A stretch of 64,000 bases of DNA from Saprospiraceae bacterium (GCA_034520175.1 JAXHNU010000028.1:74252-138251), one strand, 5' to 3'. Shown: positions 12,551-37,875, numbered from the stretch's first letter. The notes: generated by a model not told the origin, from the letters alone. A program made the numbers and translations.

Positions 12551-14025
12551 GTTCTGGCTTCATTTGGAATAACGTGTTTTGCCAAAATACGCTTTCCAAG
12601 CGTTTTACTTTCATCGCTTTTTTTCGTTGCCCACAATTGATCGCTCGCTTTTCTGGCGGAGGTTTTCAAGTCAATTATGGGTTTTAGATAGTCTTTTTCA
12701 AGGTCAAAACTGTAAAAAAGGGCTTCTAAAGCGGGCGTTTTTGATGGTTCGTGAATCAAGTGTGCGGGTAAATTTTGCAATTCGGGTACCCATTTTTTGA
12801 TAAAAACGCCTTCTGGGTCGTGTTTTTCAGAATTGTGCGTGGGGTTGTAAATCCGAATCGTGTTTATGCCCGTTACGCCTGCTTGCATTTGAAATTGAGA
12901 ATAATGAATGCCGGGTTCGTAATCCAAAAACATTTGTGCCAGATAGCCCACACCCGCCTGCCACGGTTGCCAAAGTGTGTGGGTGAGAAATGAAACGACC
13001 ATTGCCCGCATCCGAAAATTTAAGTATCCTGTCGTTTTTACGCACCGCATACACGCATCAATAAGTGGAAAACCCGTTTTGCCCTCTTTCCACGCTTGTA
13101 GGAGGGCATCGTCTGTTTCAGCCCGCAGGTGGTCGTAGGCAGCATTGACGTTGTGAAATTCCATTTCTACTTCGCTTTCAAACTTTTGCATAAAATGATC
13201 GCGCCAACGCAGCCTGTCCAAGAAGTTTTCAAGATTTCGCTTGCCGATTGGATAGGAAGACGCCTGTGCGTATTGAAAAACCTGCCGACTCGACAGGCAA
13301 CCCCAAGCCAAATAAGGCGAAATACGCCCACAATGAAAGCGGGCTGCTTCGGGTTTTGAAATGTTCTTCATGTACTCCTTTCCTCTGTTTTCAAGGAAAG
13401 ATTTGAGGTATTTCCAAGCCGCAATTTCACCACCCTGTTGAAAATCAGAATTGCGTTTAGTGATGTCACTCGGCAAAAGTGACCCCCTCAGTAGGACGTT
13501 GAGTTCTTGTGAGATGAGTTGATTGGCTGCTTTAAATTGCGTTAAATCAGGGTTTTGCATGGGTTTTTCGGCTATTTCCAGCCAGTCATCTTTCCATGTT
13601 TTCCGATTTTTCAAGCCCCGATAAATACCACTCATTCGGCTTTCCTGCCATTGAACACCGTGTTTTTTAAACAGTTTTTTTAAGCGTTTATCTCGTGCGT
13701 AGGTGAAGTTTGTCCCAATTTCTTCGTATGAAAAAACGGTATTTATTGTATAATTTCTCATCAATTGTTCAAAGACAAAATCTGATTCGTTATGACAAAA
13801 TACGATTTCTAAATTATTGATTTTTAAACGATTATTCAAATCTACTAAAGATTCGTACACAAACCGCCAATGCCGTACATTGCTGTCATACTGCTGCATG
13901 AGTGAGGGTTCAAAGATGTATAAGAGCAGTGTTACCCCCTCAGTATTGGACGCATTTTTCAAAGGTTCGTGGTCATGTAAACGCAAGTCTCTTTTAAACC
14001 AGACGATATTTAAGGCTTGTTTCAT
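12547..14025 (-). CDS. cryptochrome/photolyase family protein (FAD-binding)
   Basis: 492 aa. N-terminal [16 protein letters not shown] and a FAD-binding region ...[10 protein letters not shown]...[12 protein letters not shown]...WRDHF...[11 protein letters not shown]. The stop codon lies in the terminal repeat of the element at 12368-12550. Confidence 0.85.
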
Positions 14026-16463: not shown

Positions 16464-16928
16464 TTGCGGAACAGTTACGGGCTTGCGAGGAAAAACAGAG
16501 CTAATTTTTCATTACCCAATTTAGGTATTTTAACGGCTTTTGCCTCTTCGCTTTGCTGCATAATGCCCGTTTTAGCTATTGTCGCAGGTACAAGCGGCTT
16601 GGCTTCTACTTTTTCGTGGCTCGAACCCGCAAGACCTTTTTTTATCGGGGCAACCGTTTTAGTATTGGGCTTTGCGTGGTATCAACAACTCAAACCGAAG
16701 CCGATTGATGACTGCGGTTGTCCCGTCGAGCAAAAAAAACCTTTTATGCAAACCAAGACTTTTTTAAGTGGCATCACAATCGTTTCAGCCTTGTTGCTGT
16801 CGTTTCCGAGTTACGCACACGTCTTTTTTCCAAAATCGGAAAGCCAAACCGTTGTGAATACATCAGCCGCCGTAGAAAAAGTTGAGTTCAAAATTGAGGG
16901 GCGTGTATTGCAGCTTCCAAAGTATTAG
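16464..16928 (+). pseudogene. truncated duplicate of merTP (membrane MerT-like part only; ATG start and HMA domain lost)
   Basis: 16503-16897 is collinear with 19519-19913 and nearly identical to it. The ATG of the intact copy is replaced, and the homology breaks exactly before the GMTCESC metal-binding motif (VEFKIEGRVLQLPKY* versus VEFKIDGMTCESCEHH). Confidence 0.7.
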
Positions 16929-17053
16929 GCAAAAAAATGGTGGATAGGCAATATCTCCGCTATTACAATGAGCGGATGCGTTTTGAAGTCAAAAGCTACG
17001 GTGAAGGGACGATTGTTCCGTTGGTGTTGGAGATTCCGCATAATTGAGGGATT

Positions 17054-17126
17054 CAAAAAGTCGTTTTGCAGAAGTCATTTTAAAAATACGGGGTCGTATT
17101 TTGGCACAATCCAAAATGCGACCCCT
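17054..17126 (+). repeat. about 73-bp direct repeat (left) flanking the Rpn gene; contains a terminator-like hairpin
   Basis: CAAAAAGTCGTTTTGCAGAAGTCATTTTAAAAATACGGGGTCGTATTTTGGCACAATCCAAAATGCGACCCCT. Confidence 0.8.
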
Positions 17127-17172: not shown

Positions 17173-18189
17173 TTAAAAATTGTGTTTTTCTTTAATTTGT
17201 AGAACAAAATCAACGGAAACGTCAAAATCTTCGGCAATTTCTTCTGTTGTCAATTTACCTCTTTTCAAGGCAATGATGATATTTTTAGTTTTTTCTTCAG
17301 TTTTACCTTTGATTATACCTTCTGTAAGACCTTCAATTTTGCCTTCAATTTTGCCTTTGATTATACCTTCTGTAAGACCTTCCAATTTACCATCACCAAA
17401 AGACGTATCAATCACATTTTTTAAATCGCGGTAGTATTTCAAGCTGTCTTCGTATTGGTCAAGCTCTTCTTTCGTAAATCGGGCTATTTCTGCCGCTTCA
17501 AAAAGTTTATCAAATATCTTTTCTTGCAACTTGCTCGGACGTTCTGTGAACGAAGATAAATGTTTCAGAACATACAACCATTTGTCATAGGTTGTTTCTA
17601 ATTCATCTTCTGTTTTCGTAAAATGAGGCATTTCTAAGTAGATAAATGTCAATTTATCATAAAAAACATGGCAATCTTGGTCTTTTAGCTGAACTTCATG
17701 CCGCACTTTTTTTGCCACAATGGGTTGTGTGGTGGTCACTTTGGCTGCCGATTTCTCCTTTTTTCCCTTTGTTTTCTTGTGCGTTTCACTGTCGTCGCTG
17801 AACGCAAAATCTAAAATTCCGACTGTGAAAACTTCGGATAACTTAAAATCCCAATCGCCCCGCTGTGCTTGCTCTTGTATCGGAAAAGAAGCGTAAAATA
17901 CACTTCTATCTTTAAAATAGTTCTGTTTTGCTTTTTGCATTTCTACAACAAAACGCTCGTTATTTGACCCGATGCAGTACAAGTCAAATATCGCTTTGCG
18001 GTCAACTTCTGTTGCACCTACGTGTTCATTTTTACGATAGGTCAAATCGGTAATTTTACGTTGCTTGGGTAAAATAGCTTCATTCAGAAAGTCAATCAGC
18101 AAGTCTTTATTCAGTTCTGTACCGAACAGTTTTTTGAATCCAAAATCCGTAAATGGATTGATATATTTATCTTTTAAAGCCATTATCAT
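17173..18189 (-). CDS. Rpn family recombination-promoting nuclease / PD-(D/E)XK putative transposase
   Basis: 338 aa. The N-terminal YINPFTDFGFKKLFGTE...LLIDFLN is typical of the Bacteroidota PD-(D/E)XK (YhgA/Rpn-like) family. The C-terminal region has an internal peptide repeat, EGLTEGIIKGKIEGKIEGLTEGIIKGK. Confidence 0.8.
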   Translation of the reverse strand: MIMALKDKYINPFTDFGFKKLFGTELNKDLLIDFLNEAILPKQRKITDLTYRKNEHVGATEVDRKAIFDLYCIGSNNERFVVEMQKAKQNYFKDRSVFYASFPIQEQAQRGDWDFKLSEVFTVGILDFAFSDDSETHKKTKGKKEKSAAKVTTTQPIVAKKVRHEVQLKDQDCHVFYDKLTFIYLEMPHFTKTEDELETTYDKWLYVLKHLSSFTERPSKLQEKIFDKLFEAAEIARFTKEELDQYEDSLKYYRDLKNVIDTSFGDGKLEGLTEGIIKGKIEGKIEGLTEGIIKGKTEEKTKNIIIALKRGKLTTEEIAEDFDVSVDFVLQIKEKHNF

Positions 18190-18201
18190 TGTTTTTTATT
18201 T

Positions 18202-18386
18202 TTTGAAACCATACATAAAATCTAAGCTGATGATTCTCTGCGCTCGCTTCGCTCGCGCGAGAGGGGAATGTGGTTCATTTTTCGGGCAAAGCCCGAAAAA
18301 TGAACCACCTCTCCTCCTTTTGCGCGAGCGAAGCGAGCGCAAAAGTGCCTTTTAATGCGTATTTTGAATTTATGTATGGTTTCAAA
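18202..18386 (-). mobile_element. nested-palindrome MITE, type A, full length (185 bp)
   Basis: Termini and core as in 620-803, in inverted orientation. Perfect 8-bp duplication TTTTATTT at 18194-18201 and 18387-18394. It sits 13 bp upstream of the Rpn gene start. Confidence 0.88.
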
Positions 18387-18491
18387 TTTTATTTCACAAA
18401 AATAACCCTTTTTTAGATTTTATTGTATTTTTTTACAATTATTACACATCTTTTAAGGACTAAAAGTAAAAACACCCAAAGGCGAAGCCGT

Positions 18492-18566
18492 CAAAAAGGT
18501 CGTTTTGCAGCAGTCATTTTAAAAAAAACGGGGTCGTATTTTGGCAAAATCCAAAATACGACCCCT
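18492..18566 (+). repeat. about 75-bp direct repeat (right) flanking the Rpn gene
   Basis: CAAAAAGGTCGTTTTGCAGCAGTCATTTTAAAAAAAACGGGGTCGTATTTTGGCAAAATCCAAAATACGACCCCT. Its 3' end merges into a CCCCTCAGTA motif copy. Confidence 0.8.
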
Positions 18567-19004
18567 CAGTAAAAATGTGATTTTTTTGTAAAAAGACTCT
18601 TTTTCAGCCTATTTTTGAAAAAAAGATTAAGTTTGTCGATATTTTTCATTAAACAAATGATAAAAATGGCGAATAGAACATTTGGGCAGTCTAAACCAGC
18701 CACCAACACCAGAACAAGGAGCTAAGATATTCACTGACCATGACATGAAAGTAGTTGGACGGCCATTACAATTTTAAAGTACTCGATGACAAAAAAAGCG
18801 GCGTACAACATGGGTTTGTGGCAAGTGGGGCGGACGGAAGATATTGAACATTAGGAATTCTTTTGTACTTTTGTTTCGTCGGACGGAAACCTACTGAACT
18901 TTTGTAAGTAATTGAACAGCACTAATTTATATCGGCGGACGTTCGGGCGGACGTGTTTCAAATTCCCCACCTGCAACACAAGCCCTATTCGTTCATTATA
19001 AATG

Positions 19005-19049
19005 AAAAATACTGAGGGGGTAGCCAAGCAACACGCTGGGCTGCCTTTT
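19005..19049 (+). repeat. 44-45-bp module: AAAATACTGAGGGGG + terminator-like hairpin + T-run (copy 1)
   Basis: AAAAATACTGAGGGGGTAGCCAAGCAACACGCTGGGCTGCCTTTT. The stem is AGCCAAGC/GCTGGGCT with one mismatch and the loop is AACAC. Confidence 0.85.
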
Positions 19050-19068
19050 ATTTTTTCTTGAAAAATAA

Positions 19069-19088
19069 ATTTAAGTATTTGCTTAAAT
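19069..19088. promoter_or_regulatory. candidate operator palindrome upstream of the mer-cassette arsR
   Basis: ATTTAAG-TATTTG-CTTAAAT (7-bp perfect inverted repeat, 6-bp spacer). Confidence 0.3.
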
Positions 19089-19101
19089 AAGAAAATAAAT
19101 A

Positions 19102-19109
19102 TACCTTTG
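19102..19109 (+). promoter_or_regulatory. candidate -7 box upstream of the mer-cassette arsR
   Basis: TACCTTTG, 27 nt before the ATG at 19136. Confidence 0.4.
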
Positions 19110-19135
19110 TGCCGTTCTCAATTAAAAAGAAAAAT

Positions 19136-19513
19136 ATGAATAGCGAACAAGACAACACGTGCATCAGATTACTCGCCGACCCCATACAAATACGGGCTTG
19201 TAAGGAAAAACTAAAAAATGCCGATGTGTCCTTTACAAACCTTGCCCAAGTATTGAGTTTGGCAGGCAACGAAGTGCGATTGAAGATTTTGTACCTACTT
19301 GACCAAGAGGGCGAATTGTGTCCTTGCGATTTGTCAGACATTTTAGGTATGACAATTCCCGCCGTTTCGCAACATTTACGCAAGTTGAAAGACGTAAATC
19401 TGATACAATTTCGCCGAGAAGGGCAAACGATTTTTTACGCGCCCAAAAGCACTCATTCAGACATCATTCAACCCTTATTTCATCACATTCAAGAGAAAGA
19501 ATTTGCCGTATGA
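19136..19513 (+). CDS. ArsR/SmtB family metalloregulator of the mer cassette
   Basis: Winged-HTH LAGNEVRLKILYLL...CPCDLSDILGMTIPAVSQHLRKLK. The ATG at 19136 is preferred over the GTG at 19109. Its stop overlaps the merTP start (ATGA). Confidence 0.85.
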   Translation: MNSEQDNTCIRLLADPIQIRACKEKLKNADVSFTNLAQVLSLAGNEVRLKILYLLDQEGELCPCDLSDILGMTIPAVSQHLRKLKDVNLIQFRREGQTIFYAPKSTHSDIIQPLFHHIQEKEFAV

Positions 19514-20109
19514 AACTGAATTTTTCATTACCCAATTTAGGCATTTTGACGGCTTTTGCCTCTTCGCTTTGCTGTATAATGCCCGTTTTAGCTATTGTCG
19601 CAGGGACAAGCGGCTTGGCTTCCACCTTTTCGTGGCTCGAACCCGCAAGACCTTTTTTTATCGGGGCAACAGTTTTGGTATTAGGTTTTGCGTGGTATCA
19701 ACAACTCAAACCGAAGCCGATTGATGACTGCGGTTGCCACATTGAGCAAAAAACGCCCTTTATGCAAACCAAGGCTTTTTTAAGCGGCATCACAATCGTT
19801 TCAGCCTTGTTGCTGTCGTTTCCGAGTTACGCGCACGTCTTTTTTCCAAAATCGGAAAGCCAAACCGTTGTGAATACATCAGCCGCCGTAGAAAAAGTGG
19901 AGTTCAAAATTGATGGCATGACCTGCGAAAGCTGCGAACACCACGTGGCAAGTGAAGTAACAAAATTGACGGGCATTTTTGGGGCAACGATTTCTTATCC
20001 CAATGGCAATGCCGTTATCACGTATGATAAAAACCAAACAAACCTCGATTCTATCACAACCGCTATTAATTCAACGGGTTACACAGTAACCAAAACCACA
20101 ATACAATGA
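19510..20109 (+). CDS. merTP: mercuric transport protein MerTP (MerT-like membrane domain fused to a MerP/HMA domain)
   Basis: 200 aa. TM1 has the vicinal cysteines SSLCCIMPV, and the C-terminal HMA domain has GMTCESCEHHV. The track ORF 19318-20109 is an artefactual 5' extension. Confidence 0.8.
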   Translation: MKLNFSLPNLGILTAFASSLCCIMPVLAIVAGTSGLASTFSWLEPARPFFIGATVLVLGFAWYQQLKPKPIDDCGCHIEQKTPFMQTKAFLSGITIVSALLLSFPSYAHVFFPKSESQTVVNTSAAVEKVEFKIDGMTCESCEHHVASEVTKLTGIFGATISYPNGNAVITYDKNQTNLDSITTAINSTGYTVTKTTIQ

Positions 20110-20324
20110 CATCATCTAAAATTATTTTACAATCAACAATCACCTGTCCGCATTGTGCTTTTAAAAAAGAGGAAACAATGCCAACCGATGCTTGCCAATA
20201 CTTTTATGAATGTGAAAACTGCAAGAAAGTATTGAAACCCCATCAAGGTGACTGCTGCGTTTATTGCAGTTTCGGAACGGTCAAATGTCCGCCCATACAG
20301 GAGAATAAATCGTGTTGTGCGTGA
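20106..20324 (+). CDS. GDCCVxC domain protein (Cys form)
   Basis: 72 aa, Cys-rich, with CPHC...CENC...QGDCCVYCSFG. It is translationally coupled to merTP (ATGA overlap). Confidence 0.75.
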   Translation: MTSSKIILQSTITCPHCAFKKEETMPTDACQYFYECENCKKVLKPHQGDCCVYCSFGTVKCPPIQENKSCCA

Positions 20325-20331
20325 GTAGCAC

Positions 20332-20375
20332 AAAATACTGAGGGGGTAGCCAAGCAACACGCTGGGCTGCCTTTT
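20332..20375 (+). repeat. same module (copy 2), identical over 44 bp to copy 1
   Basis: AAAATACTGAGGGGGTAGCCAAGCAACACGCTGGGCTGCCTTTT, 8 nt after the GDCCVxC stop. Confidence 0.85.
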
Positions 20376-20443
20376 CTTTTTTTACTCAAATTGGCTGTAA
20401 TTTAAAGGGTATTTGAAGTATTCAAAATCCAAAAGTAATGCTC

Positions 20444-20451
20444 TACATTTG
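20444..20451 (+). promoter_or_regulatory. candidate -7 box upstream of the AraC-family gene
   Basis: TACATTTG, 19 nt before the ATG at 20470. Confidence 0.4.
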
Positions 20452-20469
20452 TGGCAAATTCTATAAACA

Positions 20470-21213
20470 ATGACATATAAAGAAGTAAAAACAGAAGGCT
20501 ATTTATCGAATTTTGTAAAGTGTTTTTGGACTTCTGAGATATTAACTGAAAGTGCTGAACGTACAATTTTACCAGACGGTTATTTTGATTTGATTGTGGA
20601 GATTCGGGAGAAAAAAATTGATAAAATAAAATTGACAGGCATTTGGACTATTCCGATTGACATTCAAACAAGCACAAATGTCAAAGTTTTTGCAGTTAGA
20701 TTTAAACCACTTGCAACCGAATTATTAGAAAACGTCAATTTGAGATTACTTTTAAATTCCTCGGCAATTCTCCAAAATACTTTCATTGGCTTGGACACTT
20801 TATCTTATGACAATTTTGAAGATTTCTGCCAGCATATCGAACAGTATTTAAAAAGTAGAATTGAACAGTCTAAGACCATTACCAAGTCGAAAATTGTCTT
20901 ATTTGGCGAAATTTTTAAGAAAGAAACGTTTAATGTTAAAGAATTGTCTGAAAAATCTTTGTGGACAAGCCGCCAAATAAACAGATATTTTAATTTGTCT
21001 TACGGAATTTCATTAAAGACTTACCTAAATATCATTCGATGTAAGGCAAGTTATAAAGACATTTCAAAAAACAAACTTATTCCACAAGGTAAGCACTTTG
21101 ACCAGGCTCATTATATCAAAGAAGTAAAAAAAATTACGGGGAAAACACCACGAGCATTACAAAAAAATGAGAATGACCGATTTTTACAATTATTGACGCT
21201 CAAAAGAAAGTAA
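20470..21213 (+). CDS. AraC family transcriptional regulator
   Basis: 247 aa. C-terminal AraC-type HTH (...FDQAHYIKEVKKITGKTPRALQK). Confidence 0.8.
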   Translation: MTYKEVKTEGYLSNFVKCFWTSEILTESAERTILPDGYFDLIVEIREKKIDKIKLTGIWTIPIDIQTSTNVKVFAVRFKPLATELLENVNLRLLLNSSAILQNTFIGLDTLSYDNFEDFCQHIEQYLKSRIEQSKTITKSKIVLFGEIFKKETFNVKELSEKSLWTSRQINRYFNLSYGISLKTYLNIIRCKASYKDISKNKLIPQGKHFDQAHYIKEVKKITGKTPRALQKNENDRFLQLLTLKRK

Positions 21214-21252
21214 TTTTGCGCTTTCAAAATCAATAATTTAAAATTAAGCAAA

Positions 21253-21645
21253 ATGGTAAAATTAGGATACACAATTTTATACGTTTCAGACGTAACAAAG
21301 TCAATAGAATTTTATGAAGCCGCTTTTGGCTTTGAAAGAAAATTCATAACGCCCGAAAATGATTACGGCGAATTACTCACGGGAGAAACGACACTGTCAT
21401 TTGTTTCAAAAGAATTAGCAAGTTCCAATTTGAAAAATGGTTTCATAGAAAGCACTCAAGGAAACAAACCCTTTGGTATTGAATTGGCTTTAGTCACTGA
21501 AAATGTGGCAGGAATTATTGAGAAATCTGCCACTCTCGGAGCAATAATCGTTGAAAAACCAATACAAAAACCCTGGGGACAAACTGTTGGTTATATATGT
21601 GATATTGACGGCTTTTTACTTGAAATTTGTACGCCTATGAAATAA
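21253..21645 (+). CDS. VOC (glyoxalase/bleomycin-resistance/dioxygenase) family protein
   Basis: 130 aa. N-terminal LGYTILYVSDVTKSIEFYEAAFGF and C-terminal DIDGFLLEICTP. Confidence 0.85.
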   Translation: MVKLGYTILYVSDVTKSIEFYEAAFGFERKFITPENDYGELLTGETTLSFVSKELASSNLKNGFIESTQGNKPFGIELALVTENVAGIIEKSATLGAIIVEKPIQKPWGQTVGYICDIDGFLLEICTPMK

Positions 21646-21753
21646 TAAAATGCTAATTCAAGCATTTTCAAGCCACAATACTGAGGGGGTAGCACAACAC
21701 TATCCCTAAATGTTAAAGTGTAAAAAAAATCGAAGCCTTGTCATTTTTAATTC

Positions 21754-21770
21754 GTATGTTTGCGACATAC
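21754..21770. promoter_or_regulatory. candidate ArsR operator overlapping a TAnnTTTG box
   Basis: GTATGT-TTGCG-ACATAC (perfect 6-bp inverted repeat). TATGTTTG (21755-21762) matches the -7 consensus. It lies 19 nt upstream of arsR. Confidence 0.35.
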
Positions 21771-21788
21771 TAAATAAAACTATAAAAA

Positions 21789-22118
21789 ATGTACGCCAAA
21801 ACAATAGGATTTGATACCGATTTACAAGCACTTGCCGTAGCCGCAAAGTTGTTGGCGCACCCTGCTCGAATAGCGATTATCAAATTATTGGCAGAAAAAA
21901 AGACGTGCATTTCGGGCGATATTGCCAACGAATTGCCCCTCAGTAGGGCAACTGTTTGTCAGCATTTGCAAGAACTCAAAAACGCCGATTTGATACAAGG
22001 CGAAGTGAGTGGTTTGAATGTAAACTATTGCTTGAATGTAGAAAAATGGCAATCCGTAAAGGCTCAATTTGATAGCTTATTTGACATCACAACAAAGAAT
22101 ATTAATTGCAACTGTTAA
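21789..22118 (+). CDS. arsR: ArsR family transcriptional regulator
   Basis: 109 aa. LAHPARIAIIKLL...CISGDIANELPLSRATVCQHLQELK. Confidence 0.85.
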   Translation: MYAKTIGFDTDLQALAVAAKLLAHPARIAIIKLLAEKKTCISGDIANELPLSRATVCQHLQELKNADLIQGEVSGLNVNYCLNVEKWQSVKAQFDSLFDITTKNINCNC

Positions 22119-22130
22119 AATTTTAAAATT

Positions 22131-22898
22131 ATGAAAATTGCACTTTTTAGCGACATTCACGCCAATTTACCCGCTTTACAAGCCGTTTTAGCCGATATTG
22201 ACCGCCGAAATCCCGACTTGATTTATTGTTTGGGCGATTTGGTCGGCTATGCACCCTATCCAAACGAGGTAGTTAACGAAATTCGGAAACGTAAAATTCC
22301 GACAATTGCGGGCAATTACGATGAAGGCATTGGTCTGAAATCTGATGAATGTGGCTGCGCCTACAAAGCACCCGAAGAAAAAAGCAATGGTGCTATTTCA
22401 ATTGCTTACACCAATAATCTTGTGTTGCCCGAAGAACGCGCCTATTTGAAAAACCTGCCCCGACATTTTGCCCTTGATTTTGAGCATAATGCCGAGAAAT
22501 TTAAGTTTCTAATGGTGCATGGCAGCCCGCGCAAAATCAACGAATATCTGTTTGAAGACCGTGACGAAAAAAGCCTCATGCGCATTATGGAGTTCGGCAA
22601 CGCGGATATTATGGCTTTTGGGCATACGCACAAACCGTATCACCGAATTTTGAAAAATACTGAGGGGGGTACTTTTCGCCACGCCATCAATATTGGTTCG
22701 GTAGGCAAACCCAAAGACGGTGATAATCGGGCGTGTTATGTTATTTTGGACATCAATCCTGAAACTTCTATGAAAAATCCCGACAGCCTAAAAGTGGAAT
22801 TTGTGCGCGTTGCTTACGATTTTGAAAGCATTGCAAAGGCAATTGAGGAAAGCCCTTTACCCAATGATTTTGCGGATATGCTGCGAAAAGCGTATTGA
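22131..22898 (+). CDS. metallophosphoesterase family protein
   Basis: 255 aa. Motifs FSDIHAN, GDLVGY, GNYD, VHGSP and FGHTH. Confidence 0.85.
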   Translation: MKIALFSDIHANLPALQAVLADIDRRNPDLIYCLGDLVGYAPYPNEVVNEIRKRKIPTIAGNYDEGIGLKSDECGCAYKAPEEKSNGAISIAYTNNLVLPEERAYLKNLPRHFALDFEHNAEKFKFLMVHGSPRKINEYLFEDRDEKSLMRIMEFGNADIMAFGHTHKPYHRILKNTEGGTFRHAINIGSVGKPKDGDNRACYVILDINPETSMKNPDSLKVEFVRVAYDFESIAKAIEESPLPNDFADMLRKAY

Positions 22899-22941
22899 TA
22901 AATCACCTAACATCGGTAATTTATCATTTCATCGTTCCTAA

Positions 22942-23676
22942 ATGCTACATCAAATCATGTTAAATAAAAAACTCACAATTCTGTTGGCATTTCAATTGGC
23001 GATAAGCATCGCAGGCAATGCCCAAAACGTCAATTATTTCGGTTGGTTTCCTACGCTCGACCTCAGCGGGAAAATTGCCAATCGTTGGTCATACAATGTT
23101 TATTTGTTTGATGCCGTAAAGCCGTACAACAGTACCGAAAATGCACAAACAGACAAAGCGAGGTCATTTTATGTGTATGGCGAAACGGGATTGTCGTATC
23201 AACTTACCGACAATTTGAGCGTCACCGCCGCTTATGTGCATGAACGCCAAAACCCGTTTTTGGACAATTATCGGACTGAAAACCGCCTATTTCAGCAAAT
23301 GACGCTAAAACTGCCCGTTGGAAAGTCGGAATTGAAACAACGGCTGCGGTTCGATGAGCGGTTTGTTCAAAACAGAGCAACGGGCGCAACACCTTTCACG
23401 CACCGATTGCGCTATTTATTGGGTATCAAAAAACCGTTTGCCGACAATAAAATGTATCTGATGGCTTACAGCGAAGCATTTTTCAACTCGTCAAAATCAT
23501 TCAAATTTGATGAAAATTGGTCAGCCCTTCAACTTGGTTTTCGGCTCAACGACAAAAACAGCATCGAAGCGGGTTTGCTGTTCGTCGGTTGGATAAACAA
23601 TGCGGCAAACGATTGGCTCAACCAATATTATCTGCAAACCACTTGGGTTGCTCAACTTGATTTTCCTAAAAAATAG
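22942..23676 (+). CDS. DUF2490-like outer-membrane protein
   Basis: 244 aa with a signal peptide and alternating beta-strand-like repeats (LRFDERF..., RLRYLLG...). The family call is from memory of DUF2490 features. Confidence 0.5.
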   Translation: MLHQIMLNKKLTILLAFQLAISIAGNAQNVNYFGWFPTLDLSGKIANRWSYNVYLFDAVKPYNSTENAQTDKARSFYVYGETGLSYQLTDNLSVTAAYVHERQNPFLDNYRTENRLFQQMTLKLPVGKSELKQRLRFDERFVQNRATGATPFTHRLRYLLGIKKPFADNKMYLMAYSEAFFNSSKSFKFDENWSALQLGFRLNDKNSIEAGLLFVGWINNAANDWLNQYYLQTTWVAQLDFPKK

Positions 23677-23767
23677 ACCAACCACTGATAAAGTGTAAAA
23701 TATGATGCCTTTGGCTTCATCAAGCTGAAAGCATGACTGAGGGGGGTGAAAAAATAAAAATTCAAAA

Positions 23768-24556
23768 ATGACAAAAAGAATCATCGGAAAAGACCTAATT
23801 AGGTACTTTATCCTCATTTATTGGGTGCTTTTTTGGCTACTCAACATCATTGATAAAATGATTGGGAGCGCACACTTCCTATTTGTAGGTAAAGACAGAT
23901 TTGCTCAAATTGAACGTTTTTTTGATTCGATTGGGCTGGGTAATCCCATCGTGGCGAATATTGCCTTAATCATCACGGCGGGTTTAGAAACCTTTGCTTT
24001 TGTGTTTTTTAGCGGTGCTTTGTATCATTTTAGGAAGAAAAATACGGACGCTACCCGCTCTTGGTTTTTTGCGGGTATCGCTTTAACGCTTATCACCTAC
24101 ACCTATTTTTCGGTTGGCGACCAAGTATTTGGTGACCATTTTGAGCTTTTAGAACACGGTTTATTTTGGTTTATCGCTTTATTATCTTGGATTATTTTTA
24201 TTCGAGTGGACAAAATTCAGCTATTCGACAATTTTTCAATTGGTAAAAAACAGTTTGGGCTTGCCGCCATTTTTGTCGTTGCGCTAACGGCGGTAACAAG
24301 TTTTTCAATTTTTCAGCACAACAATACAGCGTTTGTTGAAAGAACCCAAGCCGTCAATGCCCAAAAAATAACGGAAAACAAGTATAAAATTCAGTTTCCA
24401 TTTCTGGCGGGCAGCAAGGCATTTGAAAACTCCATCGCCAAATTCAAAACGGACAATCCGACCGAAAATATCACCTATATATACACCGCACCAACGCCAT
24501 TGAGATTGGGAGAATCGGACGGACTCATTATTTACATTCAAACCGAAAAAAAATGA
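23768..24556 (+). CDS. hypothetical multi-pass membrane protein (paralog A)
   Basis: 262 aa. It shares the motifs IDKMI, VGDQVFGDHFELLEHGLFW and a C-terminal YKIQFPFL... domain with the next ORF. Confidence 0.7.
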   Translation: MTKRIIGKDLIRYFILIYWVLFWLLNIIDKMIGSAHFLFVGKDRFAQIERFFDSIGLGNPIVANIALIITAGLETFAFVFFSGALYHFRKKNTDATRSWFFAGIALTLITYTYFSVGDQVFGDHFELLEHGLFWFIALLSWIIFIRVDKIQLFDNFSIGKKQFGLAAIFVVALTAVTSFSIFQHNNTAFVERTQAVNAQKITENKYKIQFPFLAGSKAFENSIAKFKTDNPTENITYIYTAPTPLRLGESDGLIIYIQTEKK

Positions 24557-25338
24557 AAGAGAAAAAATTAATTCAATATTTAATCCTTATTCATTGGACA
24601 TTGTTTTCGGCAACGACCGTCATTGACAAAATTGTTCCAGACGTTTATCCATTGTGGGTTGGGGCGGATTTTTATACACTATTCGTAAAATTCTTTGCCT
24701 CGTTGGGGGTGACAGACCCCATTTTTGCGACGATAGCCTTAGCGGGCGTTTCATTTTTAGAAATAGTAGCATTTGTTTGTTTCGCATTTTCTTTATTCAA
24801 TCTGTACAAAAGCAAAGACAACATTGCGGAACAATGGTTTTATCGGGGTATTTCATTTTCGATACTCACATTCAGTTTGTTTTCAATCGGCGACCAAGTG
24901 TTTGGCGACCGATTTACGCTCCTCGAACACACCATATTTTGGATAATATTGGTCGTTTCTTGGGTGGTTTACAAATACAATACGCTCACCGAAGAAAGGC
25001 AGGTACAATTTTCATTGACCAATGACCTAAAAATGGGTTTGTTGGTCGGCACAATATTAACAGCCCTTACGTCTTATTCTATCGTGGATTTTTCCAAAAG
25101 CACTTTTGCCAATAAAACAAAACCCGTGCAGGGCGATGAGGTCGTTGAAGGCGTTTATAAGTTTGACCTTCCATTTTTGGGCGATAAGTTTACAATGGAG
25201 AATACGATTAAATCGTTTGAAGAAAAGCACCCAAACTTAAAAATAAAGTATGTTTATACGGGACCCGATGAGCTGAACTCTAAAAAGAAAACACATATTT
25301 TACTTTATGTTTTTACGGAAAGAAGTACTGAAAAATAA
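24553..25338 (+). CDS. hypothetical multi-pass membrane protein (paralog B)
   Basis: 261 aa. ATGA overlap with paralog A. Motifs IDKIV, IGDQVFGDRFTLLEHTIFW and YKFDLPFL. Confidence 0.7.
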   Translation: MKEKKLIQYLILIHWTLFSATTVIDKIVPDVYPLWVGADFYTLFVKFFASLGVTDPIFATIALAGVSFLEIVAFVCFAFSLFNLYKSKDNIAEQWFYRGISFSILTFSLFSIGDQVFGDRFTLLEHTIFWIILVVSWVVYKYNTLTEERQVQFSLTNDLKMGLLVGTILTALTSYSIVDFSKSTFANKTKPVQGDEVVEGVYKFDLPFLGDKFTMENTIKSFEEKHPNLKIKYVYTGPDELNSKKKTHILLYVFTERSTEK

Positions 25339-25406
25339 TGCTTTAACCTTATACTTACCTCAACTATAAGTAAGATACTGAGGGGGTACTAATTCATAAA
25401 AAAAAC

Positions 25407-26621
25407 ATGACAGCCACCGTATTGATATCCATTTGTGCCTTATTGCTTTTTGCGTATATCTTCGATATTACGTCCGCAAAAACAAAAGTGCCTTCGGTCA
25501 TCCTCCTACTTTTGTTGGGTTGGACAGCCAAACTTGCTACCCAATTTTCTGGATTGACAGTGCCAAATCTTCAATCTATATTGCCGATATTGGGCACTAC
25601 TGGCTTGATACTGATTGTATTAGAAGGCTCTTTGGAGCTGGATTTGGATAAATCCAAATTCAAACTCATAGCAAAAGCAACCGTAGTTGCTGTCGTTCCT
25701 ATGGTACTATTAGCGGTAGGAATGGCTTTTTTATTTCAATATATCGAACAAACGTCTTTCAAAATAGCTTTGGGCAATGCGCTGCCCTTAGCCATTATCA
25801 GCAGTGCTATTGCCATACCAAGCGCGCGCCATTTGCCGAAAAAAGACAAGGAATTTATCACTTATGAAAGCAGTTTGTCGGATATAGTCGGCATTATTTT
25901 ATTCAATTTCGTGACGCTAAATGACAATATAGAGGCAAATTCGGTCGGGCATTTTTTCCTCGAATTGTTTTTGATGCTTGTGGTATCGTTTGTAGCAACA
26001 TTGGGTTTGGCACTTTTGCTGAGTAAAATAAAACATCACGTCAAATTTACGCCCATTATCATTTTAATCATCTTGATTTATGCCATATCAAAACTATATC
26101 ATTTACCCGCTTTAATATTTATTCTCTTATTTGGTTTGTTTTTAGGCAATTTGGATAGGCTAAGGCATATAGAATTGATAAATGTCCTGCACCCCGAAGT
26201 TTTAGAAAGAGAAGTACACAAATTTAAAGAATTGACCGCCGAAATGACATTTTTGATACGGGCATTGTTTTTCCTTTTGTTTGGCTTTTTGATAGAAAGT
26301 GCTGAATTATTCAACGCCCAAACCATTTCATGGGCAATTTTGATAACAGTGGCTATTTTTATACTTCGATTTATCAGTTTAAAATTGATGAAATTACCAA
26401 TGCCGTTGCTCTATATTGCGCCACGCGGTTTGATAACAATTTTACTGTTTTTGAGTATTCCAGAAGCGCAACAAATGCTTTTGGTGAATAAATCGCTTAT
26501 TCTTCAAATCATTATTTTGACCGCCTTTGTCATGATGTTTGGGCTGATGAAAGGTAAAAAAGAAGTGAAAGAAACAACACAAGAGGACGATGAAACGCCT
26601 AAACCAAGCGCAATATACTGA
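25407..26621 (+). CDS. cation:proton antiporter (Na+/H+ exchanger family)
   Basis: 404 aa with about 11-12 TM helices and a CPA-like layout. Its TGA stop is inside a TACTGAGGGGG motif copy. Confidence 0.7.
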   Translation: MTATVLISICALLLFAYIFDITSAKTKVPSVILLLLLGWTAKLATQFSGLTVPNLQSILPILGTTGLILIVLEGSLELDLDKSKFKLIAKATVVAVVPMVLLAVGMAFLFQYIEQTSFKIALGNALPLAIISSAIAIPSARHLPKKDKEFITYESSLSDIVGIILFNFVTLNDNIEANSVGHFFLELFLMLVVSFVATLGLALLLSKIKHHVKFTPIIILIILIYAISKLYHLPALIFILLFGLFLGNLDRLRHIELINVLHPEVLEREVHKFKELTAEMTFLIRALFFLLFGFLIESAELFNAQTISWAILITVAIFILRFISLKLMKLPMPLLYIAPRGLITILLFLSIPEAQQMLLVNKSLILQIIILTAFVMMFGLMKGKKEVKETTQEDDETPKPSAIY

Positions 26622-26666
26622 GGGGGTAATTTTCGATTAACAATCCATTTTTATTGACAAATTTTA
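26616..26666 (+). repeat. about 52-bp direct repeat preceding the PAP2 gene
   Basis: TACTGAGGGGGTAATTTTCGATTAACAATCCATTTTTATTGACAAATTTTA. Confidence 0.85.
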
Positions 26667-26677
26667 GACATATTCGT

Positions 26678-27565
26678 ATGAAAAAGTTTAATTTTCTTTT
26701 TGTTTTAGCGAGTTTTTTCTCGTTTAATGCTTTTAGTCAAAAGGCAGCATTGCCAAAACTAAGCCCCATTAGTGGGCATTACAAGGCGTTGGCAAAGTTA
26801 AGTGGTCAGCCTAAACCCGATGCGACTGATAGAAACCAATTTCCATTGGAAATTTTATCGCCTAAAAATGCTTTAAAATTGAAATTAACCCCGCAATATT
26901 TAATATTGCCCGTGAGTGATTTCAAAATTCCTAATTTCCCTGCCAACAGTTCCGAACAAACGAAGGCAGAAATTGAGTTTTTACTGAAATTGCAAGCCGA
27001 AGTACGGACGGAAGAAAAAGTAAAAGAATCACTTGAATTTGCCAACGTCTATTACAATGTTTTTGTAGTGCCGACGGATTCTTCTTACGCCAAAATGCGG
27101 AAAAATCTGTTTCACATGGGTCGTCAATTGCCTTGGTTTTCACCCGACAAACTGCCCGTAACCGCCGCTTTTATGACCAAAGTTTGGTCAGATTGTACCT
27201 ATTATTTTTGGGCTTTGAAATTTCAATACAACCGTACTCGTCCTTATATGATTGACAGTCGTATAAAGAATTTAGAGGATACAAAATTTCAAGCCTATCC
27301 TTCGGGACACGCTTCGGCTTCTTACGTTGCTGCCTACGTTTATCAAGAGTTACTGCCCGAATCAAAGGATTTATTCCTCAAAAATGCTTTTGACATGGCG
27401 TATTCGAGAGAAATTTTAGGCGTTCATTTTCCATCGGATTCAGAAGCGGGGCGTATTTTTGCACGGCAATTTGTCAATGAATTGCTCAAAACAGAACAAT
27501 TTAGAAAAGACTTAGCGGAAGCGAAAAAAGAAATATTAAGCGTGAAAAATGCCAACAATCAGTAA
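26678..27565 (+). CDS. PAP2 superfamily phosphatase / haloperoxidase-like protein
   Basis: Signal peptide, then the PAP2 motifs YPSGHAS and SREILGVHFPSD. The ATG at 26678 (MKKFNFLF) is preferred to the upstream TTG. Confidence 0.8.
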   Translation: MKKFNFLFVLASFFSFNAFSQKAALPKLSPISGHYKALAKLSGQPKPDATDRNQFPLEILSPKNALKLKLTPQYLILPVSDFKIPNFPANSSEQTKAEIEFLLKLQAEVRTEEKVKESLEFANVYYNVFVVPTDSSYAKMRKNLFHMGRQLPWFSPDKLPVTAAFMTKVWSDCTYYFWALKFQYNRTRPYMIDSRIKNLEDTKFQAYPSGHASASYVAAYVYQELLPESKDLFLKNAFDMAYSREILGVHFPSDSEAGRIFARQFVNELLKTEQFRKDLAEAKKEILSVKNANNQ

Positions 27566-27568
27566 AAA

Positions 27569-27621
27569 TACTGAGGGGGGTAATTTTCGATTAACTATCC
27601 ATTTTTTATTAACAAATTTTA
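27569..27621 (+). repeat. about 52-bp direct repeat preceding the DUF2911 gene
   Basis: TACTGAGGGGGGTAATTTTCGATTAACTATCCATTTTTTATTAACAAATTTTA. It differs from the 26616 copy by two homopolymer indels and two substitutions. Confidence 0.85.
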
Positions 27622-27632
27622 AAATTAATTTT

Positions 27633-28472
27633 ATGAAAAAGGTTTTTCAATTCCTTGTTAGTTGTGCTTTTTTAGTACAGAGTTTTCAAACCCAAGCGCA
27701 AATCAACACACCCGTTGAAAGTCCGAGTGCCTCGTTCACACAAAAATTTGGCTTAACCGAAATCAAAATGGAATACAGCCGTCCGAGTGTAAAAAACCGT
27801 AAAATATTTGGGAATGTCGTCATTTTTGATAAAATTTGGCGCATTGGGGCAAATAGTTCAACCAAATTTTCAACGACGGATAGCCTTACCATTGCTGGAA
27901 AAGGGCTTTCAAAAGGCAACTACATCATGTTGGCTATTCCGAACAAGGACGAGTGGACAATCATTTTCAACAAAAACCTTGAGGTGAGTTACGAAAATTA
28001 CAAGCCTGAATTTAACGTTTTAGAGGTGAAAATCAAACCTAAAAAAACGGCGCAATTCGTAGAAACATTTGGTATTCAAACCAATAACCTCACAAAAACG
28101 TCTTGCGATTTGGAATTGGCTTGGGAAAATACGCTTATCCAAATTCCTTTGCAAAATGAACCCCATTCAAAAATAATGGCTGAAATCAAGCAAAAATTGG
28201 GCGGTCCTACCAAAGCCGATTTTCAGACAATTGCGGGTTATTATTACGAACACAATATTGACCTAAAATCTGCCCTTGAATACATTGACAAAGGCATCGC
28301 ACAAGGCGAAGGCTACGGTAATTTGCGCATGAAGTCTCTTATTTTAGCCAAAATGGGTAATAAAAAAGAGGCTATTGTGTGGGCTGAAAAGTCATTGGCA
28401 CGGGCAAAAATGTTTAGTAATGCTGATTATATCCGCATGAACGAGGAAGCGATTGCGGAGTGGAAAAAATAA
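27633..28472 (+). CDS. DUF2911 domain protein with TPR-like C-terminus
   Basis: Signal peptide MKKVFQFLVSCAFLVQSFQTQAQ, then SPSASFTQKFGLTEIKMEYSRPSVKNRKIFG...WRIGANSSTKF..., which is characteristic of DUF2911. Confidence 0.7.
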   Translation: MKKVFQFLVSCAFLVQSFQTQAQINTPVESPSASFTQKFGLTEIKMEYSRPSVKNRKIFGNVVIFDKIWRIGANSSTKFSTTDSLTIAGKGLSKGNYIMLAIPNKDEWTIIFNKNLEVSYENYKPEFNVLEVKIKPKKTAQFVETFGIQTNNLTKTSCDLELAWENTLIQIPLQNEPHSKIMAEIKQKLGGPTKADFQTIAGYYYEHNIDLKSALEYIDKGIAQGEGYGNLRMKSLILAKMGNKKEAIVWAEKSLARAKMFSNADYIRMNEEAIAEWKK

Positions 28473-28614
28473 AATTTCAAGGGGGTGCAACCTCGTTAAA
28501 AAGTTGTACCCTCTTAACTAAGTAGTCACTCATAAAGTCGGGTTAGCATTTCAAGTGCTAACCCGACTCCATTAACTTGAAGTACTACTAAGGAATGAAC
28601 TAAAATCAAAATCA

Positions 28615-30108: not shown

Positions 30109-30293
30109 GGAATTAAGTAGTCAGTTAGTTTAAAAGTCGGTTAGTCAGTCAGTCTAAAGCATTGACAATCAGCTTTTTATAAAATTTCAGAACAGCGATT
30201 ATTTATGACAACATAGTTAAAAGAACCTCAAAGTGAATACCTAATCTTAAACAAATATTAAAGATGCTCTTACACTTTTAAAATAATATAAAA

Positions 30294-32413: not shown

Positions 32414-32444
32414 TTTTTTATGTTTTAATTATTGTGATAAATAT

Positions 32445-32629
32445 TTTGAAACCATACATAAAATCTAAACTGCTGGTTCTCGCGCTCGCTTCGCTCGCGC
32501 GAGAGGGGGAATGTGGTTCATTTTTCGGGCAAAGCCCGAAAAATGAACCACCTCTCTTCCTTTTGCGCGAGCAAAGCGAGCGCAAAAGTGCCTTTTAATG
32601 CGTATTTTGAATTTATGTATGGTTTCAAA
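32445..32629 (-). mobile_element. nested-palindrome MITE, type A, full length (no flanking duplication seen)
   Basis: Both termini and the core are intact. The flanks ATAAATAT and TTCGTGAA do not match. Confidence 0.8.
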
Positions 32630-32680
32630 TTCGTGAAAATGTACTTTAAAGTGAGTGATTAATATTTATGCGAAATTGCT

Positions 32681-34670: not shown

Positions 34671-37600
34671 CTAAATTTGACCACCTACCCCTTTAAACTT
34701 CTCCACAAAAGAAGCAATTCTTTGAAAAACGCTTTGTTTTTTTGTCAAATACTGCGGGTTTAAAGGACTCATCTTGGGCAAAATGGCGTTGAGTTCTGTG
34801 CCGTTTTCACTCGCGTATTCCCGCTTCAAGGAAGCCTTTATGTACCGCTTTGCGGCTACCTCATTTAAGTTTTCATCGGCAATGAGTTCTGCGGCTTCTA
34901 TTTTTTGTTTGCCTTGTGCGTAAGTGAAGAAAGCGTCTATGATGCTTGCTTTGTCAGGTATGGCATCAAGCTCGGTTGCATTGATAAAATCAACGACCAA
35001 ACTTTCTTTGGCTCTATTGCCTACACTCGCCCGAATAATGCGCCGTGTTTCTTCTATCAAAGTCGCTTTGTCTTTGGTCTTTTTGTTGTGGTCAAAAATC
35101 AATTCGAGAATGTAATCCAAGTTTATTTCTTGCGATTTCAATAAATCTACTTCAAACACCACATCGTCCCAATCAATTTTTGAGGCTTCGGCTGCTGCCC
35201 CGCTTTTCTCCCGTCTTATCCAATCCCGAATATCGTTGTACGTGGAGCGATAATCTTGAATGGTTCGCTCTTTTAGCAATTGAACGCCTTTCATGTCCTC
35301 AACTTCGGCATCGGTTAAAAAATGCGCTTCTTTGAAGGATTCAACCGCCGCAGCGTCGTTGAGGTCTATGGTTTGAAGGGCTTTTAAATGGGTAAACTCA
35401 TCGTAATTTTGGAGGATATTTTCTACCCGCAGGTACTCGCCAAAGAGTTTTGCGAACTCTTTTTTATCTTTCTCTTTGACTATTTCATCAGGATTTGGGA
35501 ACTTTTCGTTCAATTCTTTGACCACTTCTATAAAACCTCTCCGCGCTTCACCCGTTGCCACGTCCGTAAAACCGCCTAAATATTCTTTGTAGCTCTTTTC
35601 AAGCACGACGTTTTTCGTATTCTTATCTCCAAAAAGCGTAATGGCATCAATAGTAGCCTGTTCTAAATTTCTAAACGTGACAATATTGCCAAAAGACTTA
35701 TTAGGATAAATACGGTTTGTGCGGGAAAAGGCTTGCATCAAACCATGATACCGCAGGTTTTTATCCACAAACAAGGTGTTGAGCGTCGGTGCATCAAAAC
35801 CCGTTAGAAACATACCGACCACAATCAGTAAGTCTATTTCCTTGCTTTTTACCCGTTTGGCAAGGTCACGGTAGTAGTTCTGAAATTCGTTGCTGTCCAC
35901 GCCATAACTGGTTTTGAACATTGCATTGTAGTCATTGATGGCTTTTGCTAAAAATTCTTTCGCGCTGATGTCCATTACTGAGGGGTCAAAAGTCTCGTCC
36001 ACTATTTCACCGACGGCACTTTGTTCTTCATTGGCGGCGTAGGAAAAAATGGTCGCTATGCGTAAGGGCTTATCACTATCCTTTTGCAAACAGTTCAAGG
36101 CTTCGTAATAGCATTTGGCAGCATCAACGCTGCTGACCGCAAACATCGCATTGAAGCCTTTGTTTGTGCCTTGTGTTCGGTTGGTTTTAAACCTGAAATT
36201 CTTTAAAATGTATTCCGAAATTTCTTCAATCCGTTTGGGGTGCAACAAAGCGGTTTTGTTTTCGGCGGCACTGAGTTTCTTTTCGTCTATTTCGGTTTCA
36301 ATCCCTTTAAACATGGGGCGAACATCGTTGTAATCCACTTTAAATTTCAACACCTTATCATCTCTAATCGCATCGGTAATGACGTAAGAATGTAACTCAC
36401 GACCAAATACGCTTGCCGTCGTTTCCGAACCCAAAGCATTTTGAGGAAATATGGGCGTTCCCGTAAAACCAAATTGATAATACTTTTTAAACTTCTTGCT
36501 CAGGTTTTTTTGGGCTTCGCCAAATTGAGAGCGGTGACACTCATCAAATATGAAAATGACTTGCTTTTTGTAAATCGCTAAATCAGCCTCAGTTTTCATT
36601 AAGTGATTCAACTTCTGAATAGTTGTCACGATGATTTTATTGTCTTCTTTTTCGATATTGCGCTTCAATCCTGCGGTGCTGTCCGAGCCGTTCACGCTAT
36701 CGGGCGAGAAATCGTTGGTATTCTTTCATGGTTTGAAAGTCCAAATCTTTGCGGTCCACCACGAAGAATACTTTATCTATAAAATCCAATTGCGTGGCTA
36801 ATCGGGCGGCTTTGAAACTCGTGAGGGTTTTGCCCGAACCCGTCGTGTGCCAAATATAACCACCCCCCTCAGTATCTGACCATTTTTTAGCTTCAAATGA
36901 ACTTTTAATTTTCCACATCATGCGTTCGGTAGCGGCTATCTGATAAGGGCGCATGATGAGCAGCGTATCACTCGCATCAAATACCGAATACGTCAGCAGC
37001 ACATTCAAAAGCGTGTGTTTTTGAAAAAACGTCGCCGTGAAATCTTTGAGGTCTTTGATGAGCGTATTATCCGATTTTGCCCAGTTCATCGTAAAATCAA
37101 AACTGTTTTTATTGCGCTCGACGGTGTTGGCAAAATAGCGGCTATCGGTGCCGTTGGAGATGACAAATATCTGTATGTACTTGAAAAGCGAGTTTTCACT
37201 ATTGAAACTCTCTTTGGTGTAGCGATGCACTTGATTGAAGGCTTCTTGGATAGCAACGCCCCGTTTTTTTAATTCGACTTGTATCAAAGGCAATCCATTC
37301 ACCAAAATCGTCACATCATAGCGGTTGGCGTGCTTGCCTTTTTGCTCAAATTGGGCAATGACTTGTACTTTATTGCGGGCAATCTGCTTTTTATCCACTA
37401 AATAGATGTTTTGGATATGCCCATCGTCAAAGACAAAATCGTGGATATAATTGTCGTGGATTTTCCTTGTTTTCTCCACCAAATTATCGCTGGGTTTGGC
37501 CAAATATTCCGCCACAAAACGCCGCCATTCCGCATCTGAAAACGCCATCGCGTTGAGCGTTTGTAGCTGTTCGCGGACATTCGCCAATAGAGCATCGGGC

Positions 37601-37773: not shown

Positions 37774-37798
37774 TTTTATTTATTTTTATTATCTTGTT

Positions 37799-37875
37799 GG
37801 GGCGACCGTTCGCGCGACCGTTGGGGCGACCCTTGTGGTTGCCCTTTATTTTGGGGCGACCACGAGGGTCGCCCC
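37799..37875. repeat. GC-rich GGGGCGACC repeat cluster with strong hairpin between hsdS and hsdR
   Basis: GGGGCGACC-like units at 37799, about 37813 (GCGCGACC), 37823 and 37853. GGGGCGACCACGAGGGTCGCCCC (37853-37875) is a 9-10-bp GC stem. Confidence 0.7.

Follow-up and report, generated by a model that had tools for sequence, protein, structure and literature searches.

An uptake-signal-like genomic word, tentatively identified in the spacers of a variable metal-resistance region of a Saprospiraceae bacterium

We analysed a 64,000-nt stretch of DNA from a Saprospiraceae bacterium (GCA_034520175.1, JAXHNU010000028.1:74252-138251; hereafter the window, with positions counted from its first nucleotide), in which a short motif recurs between and within genes. 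The motif is TACTGAGGGGG, and an unbiased k-mer count of the window gave its sharp 10-nt core, TACTGAGGGG. The source is a Saprospiraceae metagenome-assembled genome, as two proteins (P0001 and P0241) with 100% identity to window proteins indicate. Attention had been drawn to positions 19,005 to 28,472 by an initial annotation, which proposed that accessory genes are laid out there as cassettes punctuated by same-orientation motif copies, in loose analogy to integron attC sites. Our analysis confirms that the 19-28 kb region is modular and variable, and leads us to the tentative interpretation that the motif is an uptake-signal-like genomic word lodged in spacers that tolerate it, within a metal-resistance region of variable gene content, and that the longer repeats around some genes arose as local spacer duplications.

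The region encodes, in order, arsR, merT-HMA, a glyoxalase-fold gene, arsR-metallophosphoesterase-DUF2490, two paralogs, the antiporter gene (for a membrane protein whose relatives are antiporter-like), PAP2 and DUF2911, in agreement with the gene content initially described. The units carry their own regulators and promoter-like TAnnTTTG boxes, the latter read from the sequence. Plus-strand motif copies are present at every position previously listed, namely 19010, 20336, 21679, 23735 (a variant), 25376, 26616 and 27569. The accompanying claim that every boundary carries one copy stands only in part, since the listed copies are real but four spacers (21214-21252, 22899-22941, 28473-28614 and 30109-30293) have none, and the set of boundaries was defined post hoc. 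Nor are the copies punctuation only, as three intragenic copies that went unmentioned lie in the same segment: one in arsR (21935-21945, minus strand, antisense, encoding P-L-S), one in the metallophosphoesterase gene (22658-22668, plus strand, sense, encoding T-E-G) and one in an aminotransferase gene (29121, plus strand). BLAST of 15-34 kb against plasmids returned no match, none of the metagenome loci was syntenic with 19-28 kb, and a genome-contig search with the antiporter gene recovered only relatives at ≤66% identity, none of which carries the word. Upstream of the region, a 395-bp merT fragment at 16503-16897 duplicates 19519-19913 at 95% identity; lacking both a start codon and the HMA domain, it is a recent partial duplication or a pseudogene.

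Three gene sets in the window are flanked by direct repeats that begin at the motif. A 44-bp module (AAAATACTGAGGGGGTAGCCAAGCAACACGCTGGGCTGCCTTTT), composed of an A-run, the motif, a hairpin and a T-run, is present as two exactly matching plus-strand copies, as had been reported: one at 19006-19049, upstream of the arsR-merTP operon, and the other at 20332-20375, 8 nt past the stop codon of a 72-aa Cys-rich open reading frame (ORF), where it is terminator-like. The diverged modules described around the NUDIX gene are also present on the plus strand, upstream at 40995-41035 with a weak fold, and downstream at 41919-41958, where the module is fused to a half copy of a large palindromic repeat (41872-41921). 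These four module copies, the only ones in the window, make two bracketing pairs, an arrangement with P=0.006 under random placement. The observation that the module at 40995 follows no plus-strand gene holds, and applies equally to the one at 19006. The repeat around PAP2 is real, with a length of ~70 nt instead of the ~52 bp initially given, and extends from the motif into the first three codons of the next gene. Its first copy (26616-26686, plus strand) reaches from the motif, in which TGA is the antiporter stop codon, to ATGAAAAAG of PAP2, and its second (27569-27641, plus strand) reaches from the motif to ATGAAAAAG of DUF2911, whose start codon is confirmed by P0241, a protein 100% identical to a window protein. 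Since the right-hand part of this repeat matches the native DUF2911 leader of the relative L209, it appears to be a local spacer duplication. Among the remaining spacer copies on the plus strand, alignment identified a decayed module-like copy (TACTGAGGGGGTAGC...) at 21679-21712, after the VOC gene, and, with L081 and L082, the variant at 23735-23746 (GACTGAGGGGG / GACTGAGGGGGG), which abuts and overwrites the start codon of the homologues so that the gene start is now 7 codons downstream. The copy at 25376-25386 lies between the stop codon of the paralog, 37 nt upstream, and the ATG of the antiporter gene, 20 nt downstream.

Across the window, the core TACTGAGGGG occurs in 40 exact copies (~1 per 1.6 kb) compared with 0.03 expected in first-order Markov simulations of the window, and sites of the motif with at most one mismatch number 42 compared with 0.18 expected. 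The word is very sharply defined: only three copies have one mismatch and two-mismatch copies are at chance level, for which the DNA uptake sequence of Kingella oralis (kingDUS) offers a point of comparison, as its counts rise by 21% when one mismatch is allowed (PMC3630211). Conservation is confined to ~14 nt around the core and falls to background outside it; what remains is a weak A-run ahead of the core, G or T behind it, and a G-run that is 4-7 long. The word is non-palindromic. A longer element or extended motif behind the word was ruled out because information ends beyond ~14 nt. No Rfam family matched anywhere in the window. The literature searched contained nothing about the word, nor any mention of uptake sequences from Bacteroidota or Saprospiraceae, and the word is apparently undescribed. 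We conclude that this is a lineage-specific genomic word of the form aaA-TACTGAGGGG(G)-t, spread genome-wide in this bacterium and its relatives, as judged from its density in the window and in the loci of relatives.

The copies are distributed over genes and spacers alike, with 19 of the 40 inside genes and 21 in spacers of a cleaned gene list. Relative to length, spacers are favoured 3.5-fold (1.37 copies per kb, compared with 0.39 per kb in genes; p=9e-5), and only 20 of the 51 spacers hold a copy. Besides those already named in arsR, the phosphoesterase and the aminotransferase, coding copies are found in tpi (2), ubiA, rtcB, fpg (2), photolyase (2), an SDR, hsdR (2), hsdM, a methyltransferase and a type III polyketide synthase (2), all of them genuine genes and some with housekeeping roles. 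The coding copies occupy all five stop-free frames and are evenly divided between sense and antisense (11 each); with five reading frames in use, a protein motif was ruled out as the source of the word.

Comparison of tpi among relatives shows that the constraint on the word lies on the DNA and not on the protein. The first of its two minus-strand sites (2643-2652) encodes P-S-V; L083 and L085 share it intact, and L089 has it with a single mismatch. Here, Pro-Ser-Val is written CCC TCA GTA in the word-bearing lineages and CCA TCG GTT in L206, so the same amino acids are encoded by other codons where the word is absent, indicating that the signal acts at the level of DNA. The second site (2908-2917) encodes P-L-S, where relatives lacking the word encode P-L-K/R/E, three substitutions away. 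The difference from L085 consists of exactly three substitutions (Lys to Ser) without an indel, so coding copies are made by point changes and not by insertion.

The orientation of the copies is mixed and, taken overall, close to random. By hand count, 19 window sites are on the plus strand and 23 on the minus strand, in 21 runs compared with 21.8 expected. Among the 22 intergenic copies, chance yields a same-orientation run of at least seven with P=0.13, and a pair of runs of at least six with P=0.018, as assessed post hoc. Several copies in the 19-28 kb run duplicate each other (19006 equals 20332, 21679 is a decayed copy, and 26616 and 27569 are near-identical), so it comprises fewer independent events than copies and is of weak value as evidence. 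A general coherence of orientation was rejected as not significant. Opposite-orientation copies in 55-64 kb, which had been pointed out, are indeed present: six minus-strand copies lie between plus-strand genes (55137, 55635, 57880, 59910, 62436 and 63353, the last ending at 63363), with the final three 0-6 nt from a stop codon. Several window copies sit right after stop codons; a general preference for this position was rejected, since copies there were as frequent as under random placement in a crude 300-kb test that missed some of the window cases.

The word recurs at comparable density in relatives. L083 and L089, with triosephosphate isomerase (TPI) 87-89% identical to that of the window, keep the tpi sites. 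In L085 (TPI 72%), 15 exact copies are spread over 16 kb that hold core genes such as glgC, a Mur ligase gene, accC and the ATP synthase operon. L209 carries 5 copies in 9 kb, among them the arsR and phosphoesterase sites of the window, and ~25 further metagenome loci have roughly 1 copy per kb. These loci were found by scanning for two copies 250-280 nt apart; unrelated tandem satellites also recovered (4-14 copies per kb on one strand, G+C 0.42-0.61) were set aside. Contigs whose satellites contain TACTGAGGGG include L090, L092, L102, L144, L148 and others, with the Ga0131853 and Ga0123354 series accounting for many. In L206 (TPI 64%), there are no copies of TACTGAGGGG and 18 of the variant TACTGGGGGG in 20.8 kb, 13 of which occupy the spacers of core genes, including ribosomal-protein genes, tpi and clpB, demonstrating that lineage variants exist, and in L207 (TPI 62%) neither form was found. 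Further afield, 80 loci of other Bacteroidota (~1.3 Mb) contain no copy of the 11-mer, and the 9-mer core occurs only twice in the first 82 loci retrieved. As density in the core operons of relatives equals that in the window, the pattern of one copy per spacer is general to these genomes and not particular to accessory cassettes.

Some of the copies are built into predicted terminators. The 44-bp module folds with -22.7 kcal/mol (z -4.5) at 19006 and -23.0 kcal/mol (z -4.3) at 20332, its stem using the G-run of the word and being followed by a U-run, and thus has the G+C-rich hairpin and U-run of an intrinsic terminator. At 18510-18571 (minus strand), the G-run of the motif opens a hairpin of 15 bp (-26.9 kcal/mol, z -5.5) with a T-run behind it, and at 43716-43775 (minus strand), the motif forms the 5' arm of a long hairpin (-27 kcal/mol, z -7.1). 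A hairpin with U-run is accordingly found at 19006, 20332, 18561 and 43765, a weak hairpin at 21679 (-12 kcal/mol), and no fold at 26616 and 27569. Close inverted pairs all have one form (11 of 11), CCCCTCAGTA-loop-TACTGAGGGG enclosed by an A-run and a T-run, as in the pair CCCCTCAGTA ... TACTGAGGAGG at 7505-7566 (neither strand assigned), and one further pair of the variant word has the same terminator shape. By sequence, this is the predicted shape of a bidirectional terminator. Next to the 18510 hairpin, a PD-(D/E)XK 'transposase' (Rpn-like) gene (17173-18189) lies between direct 76-nt repeats (17053-17126 and 18491-18566, 92% identical), each holding a 15-bp hairpin (GGGGTCGTATTTTGG...CCAAAATRCGACCCC), and one of these repeats overlaps a motif copy.

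Synteny with relatives had been proposed as the means of deciding whether motif copies mark the edges of mobile units, and gene-unit variation was indeed found. In blastn alignments, L209 1009-2117 matches window 21789-22899 and L209 2122-2979 matches 27610-28476, so that, where L209 has arsR, phosphoesterase and DUF2911 genes side by side, the window has 4.7 kb extra between the latter two (22899-27609, plus strand), encoding DUF2490, the two paralogs, the antiporter and PAP2. Two of the three breakpoints in this single comparison have no motif (22899, which is at a stop codon, and 28476), and the right breakpoint of the block (~27610) lies ~30 nt downstream of the copy at 27569. Together with L210-L213, which have the arrangement PAP2-DUF6428-DUF2911(-arsC) without the word, these loci show that gene order in the ars-like cluster varies. 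The spacer between ECH and ubiA is 3 nt long in the window and ~305 nt in L089, where it contains repeats and one word copy between the same flanking genes. At the DNA level, the operon of the two paralogs shares 80% identity with a contig that lacks the word, but the match is restricted to the coding region and cannot place an edge; L081 homology was therefore rejected as proof of a cassette edge at 23735.

Based on these observations, we propose that the word is maintained at the DNA level by something that reads double-stranded DNA. The likeliest reader would be a DNA-uptake or transformation machinery preferring word-bearing fragments, which would make the word a signal of the type of the DNA uptake sequences (DUS) and uptake signal sequences (USS), and we infer uptake as its function on these grounds. 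Copies would accumulate through biased uptake and recombination and persist best where they are cheapest: in codons that tolerate them, and in spacers, where terminator hairpins incorporate some of them. The 'cassettes' of 19-28 kb would then be transcription units of the usual kind (terminator, promoter, gene), lying in a metal-resistance region that varies and having one word copy per sizeable spacer, and the 44-70-bp bracketing repeats would be recent local duplications of whole spacers or modules, probably via homologous, Campbell-type recombination between short spacer repeats. We rank this interpretation first because the traits of the word match those published for DUS and USS, which occur at ~1 per kb in genes and spacers, with about half of the copies in terminators, as inverted pairs there, and which come in dialects, are seldom degenerate and favour genes of genome maintenance (bioRxiv 10.1101/2025.10.24.684340; PMC3630211). 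Like those signals, the word falls within a length of 9-12 nt, occurs at ~1 per kb on both strands and in genes in all stop-free frames as well as in spacers, is enriched in spacers and terminators with terminator-shaped inverted pairs, has lineage variants (TACTGAGGGG compared with TACTGGGGGG in L206) and few degenerate copies, and is present in DNA-repair and restriction genes; its coding copies avoid stop frames and arise by substitution under constraint on the DNA.

Several points nevertheless weigh against an uptake signal. DUS and USS have been reported only from Neisseriaceae and Pasteurellaceae, both proteobacterial, whereas the word belongs to another phylum (Bacteroidota) and is unrelated in sequence, and it has no known receptor, competence genes or uptake bias; comEC, comEA, dprA and type IV pilus genes were not found in the 64-kb window. 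Most window spacer copies have no convincing hairpin, and fewer are in clear terminators than the ~50% reported. There may also be a local strand bias: one strand of L085 1-16156 carries 14 of the 15 copies there, while the genes run in both directions, and over all loci adjacent copies are co-oriented in 103 cases compared with 78 (p=0.07). The L085 bias, an outlier, and the slight co-orientation of neighbours would fit a replication-oriented signal better than uptake. In addition, a predicted viral or mobile contig with an Ant-like anti-repressor and a primase/helicase (IMG/VR UViG_3300046336_000213; L214, L217) carries 16 copies of the 10-mer in 21 kb, a host-like density, and all three families of bracketing repeats start exactly at the word, which spacer duplication would not require.

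The strand bias, the host-like density on this contig and the very sharp conservation of the word would instead suit a site read by a host nuclease or helicase, a translocase or a nucleoid protein, comparable to Chi or to the FtsK-orienting polar sequences (KOPS), or a mark of 'self', which selection keeps frequent and possibly oriented. We rank this second and consider it unlikely, as orientation in the window is mixed and the combination of coding and spacer copies with spacer enrichment fits a costly, drive-maintained word better. Chi, KOPS, the SpoIIIE recognition sequences (SRS) and HIP1 of cyanobacteria, whose function is not known, are likewise over-represented words, Chi and KOPS being read by DNA-handling proteins, and the G-rich core of the word loosely recalls KOPS (GGGNAGGG) and SRS. 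These words are, however, 5-8 nt long and are not known to be enriched in spacers, Chi and KOPS are not known to form terminator pairs and are strongly skewed with replication, and HIP1 is palindromic. A signal at the transcript level, such as half of a terminator, an RNA processing site or a leader element, ranks third and appears improbable. It would account for the module and the several copies that form hairpins followed by a U-run, and for L206, where most spacer copies point along transcription with a T-run after them, but sense and antisense copies are equal within genes, the word opposes transcription throughout 55-64 kb and in the L085 ATP synthase operon, and the lack of a hairpin at most window spacer copies and of any Rfam match in the window also speaks against it.

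Fourth, and with very little probability in our view, a site-specific recombinase or HUH enzyme could recognise the motif and insert or excise gene units there as at attC, as the initial annotation had proposed. The variation of gene units against L209, L210 and L213, the three gene sets with motif-initiated direct repeats, the two module pairs and the copy at 23735 abutting the 5' edge of the L081 homology are all compatible with such an enzyme, as is the 4.7-kb block, in which every spacer of at least 56 nt has a copy and the 4.3 kb of coding DNA none. About half of the copies are, however, in genes, where they were made by substitution; the word is just as dense in core operons of relatives, for example those for ATP synthase and ribosomal proteins; motif orientation is independent of gene direction; and the breakpoints against L209 do not coincide with motif copies. 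The ECH-ubiA spacer differs in length although its flanking genes are the same, bracketing repeats of 44-70 bp are too long for duplication of a core site, and Pfam scans of 60 window ORFs identified no integrase or recombinase, which agrees with the earlier statement that no integrase is present in the window. Short gene units in series with a sequence recurring near stop codons do recall integrons, yet an integron array adjoins an attI site and the gene for the tyrosine recombinase IntI, and its attC sites are imperfect palindromes of 55-140 nt that have conserved core and inverse-core sites and R''/L''/L'/R' boxes and are confined to cassette boundaries in a single orientation relative to the ORFs, whereas here ~14 nt are conserved without such boxes or palindromy, most spacer copies are unfolded, the word is also found in genes and in both orientations, the units have their own promoters and regulators, and IntI is absent from the window. 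The motif is thus not a dedicated boundary or recombination site, and an integron-like mechanism is not supported. Least probable of all are remnants or ends of a small mobile repeat, such as repetitive extragenic palindromes (REP) and their mosaic elements (BIME), a miniature inverted-repeat transposable element or an insertion footprint. Dispersed repeats are abundant in this genome, some copies lie within longer repeated units, and the L089 spacer copy sits among other inserted repeats; REPs resemble the word in being short repeats that abound in spacers and lie partly in hairpins. REPs are, however, 20-40-nt extragenic palindromes, in contrast to a non-palindromic 10-mer with half of its copies in genes, in frame and without indels, with no conservation beyond ~14 nt and with no REP-associated tyrosine transposase (RAYT) or other transposase linked to it in the window.

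Returning to the uptake-signal interpretation, the exchange of gene units has a possible parallel in the minimal mobile elements of Neisseria, in which transformation swaps gene units at places framed by conserved genes. Similarly, accessory units differ at a fixed place between the phosphoesterase and DUF2911 genes, with uptake-signal-like words nearby, although here one relative was compared and exchange by transformation is only presumed. A broader possibility, which we hold with more doubt than the interpretation of the word itself, is that a Saprospiraceae-related clade has a DUS/USS-type uptake signal in at least two dialects (TACTGAGGGG and TACTGGGGGG), the first outside Proteobacteria, and that resistance genes spread by transformation as units each with their own signal copy, which would explain the appearance of punctuated cassettes.

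For some thirty years, sequence-specific uptake has been documented in two proteobacterial families only. If environmental Bacteroidota were an independent case with dialects of their own, this would mean that self-preferring transformation evolved more than once, and would provide a handle for finding a new receptor and a simple marker for gene flow and metagenome binning. Whatever its function, the word defines its lineage very sharply and limits which codons housekeeping genes use, and such words should not be read as boundaries of mobile elements or integrons in annotation.

The window has further repeats and disrupted genes. A nested palindromic repeat of ~130 nt (CGCGCTCGCTTCGCTCGCGC ... 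GTGGTTCATTTTTCGGGCAAAGCCCGAAAAATGAACCAC ... GCGCGAGCGAAGCGAGCGC) has at least 23 copies (examples at 12394-12554, 18229-18389, 32472-32632, 40835-40967 and 50282-50442) and fills many spacers, chiefly in 1-16 kb, where the 10-mer is rare. A 20-nt word (TTTGAAACCATACATAAAAT) has 9 copies, mostly adjoining this large palindromic repeat (e.g. 18188-18221, 32431-32464 and 53447-53480). Downstream of the NUDIX gene, 41648-41812 is a dispersed repeat with three copies at 78% identity in L199, a metagenome contig of a relative (176-340, 782-946 and 1118-1277). No motif copy lies within the 4.6 kb of 43775-48367, which include a segment of low G+C (0.333 at 44-46 kb) encoding an AAA_21/AbiEii-like ATPase, and this stretch is possibly recently acquired DNA. 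In the type I restriction locus (34671-37773 and 37774-39151), hsdR is split into an N-terminal ORF (36697-37773) and a C-terminal ORF (34671-36599), and as there is no intact hsdS between hsdR and hsdM, the system looks degraded. A TonB-dependent-receptor-like gene (60007-62436) also seems to be broken in two, with CarboxypepD_reg/Plug in one part (60007-61017) and the beta-barrel in the other (61084-62436).

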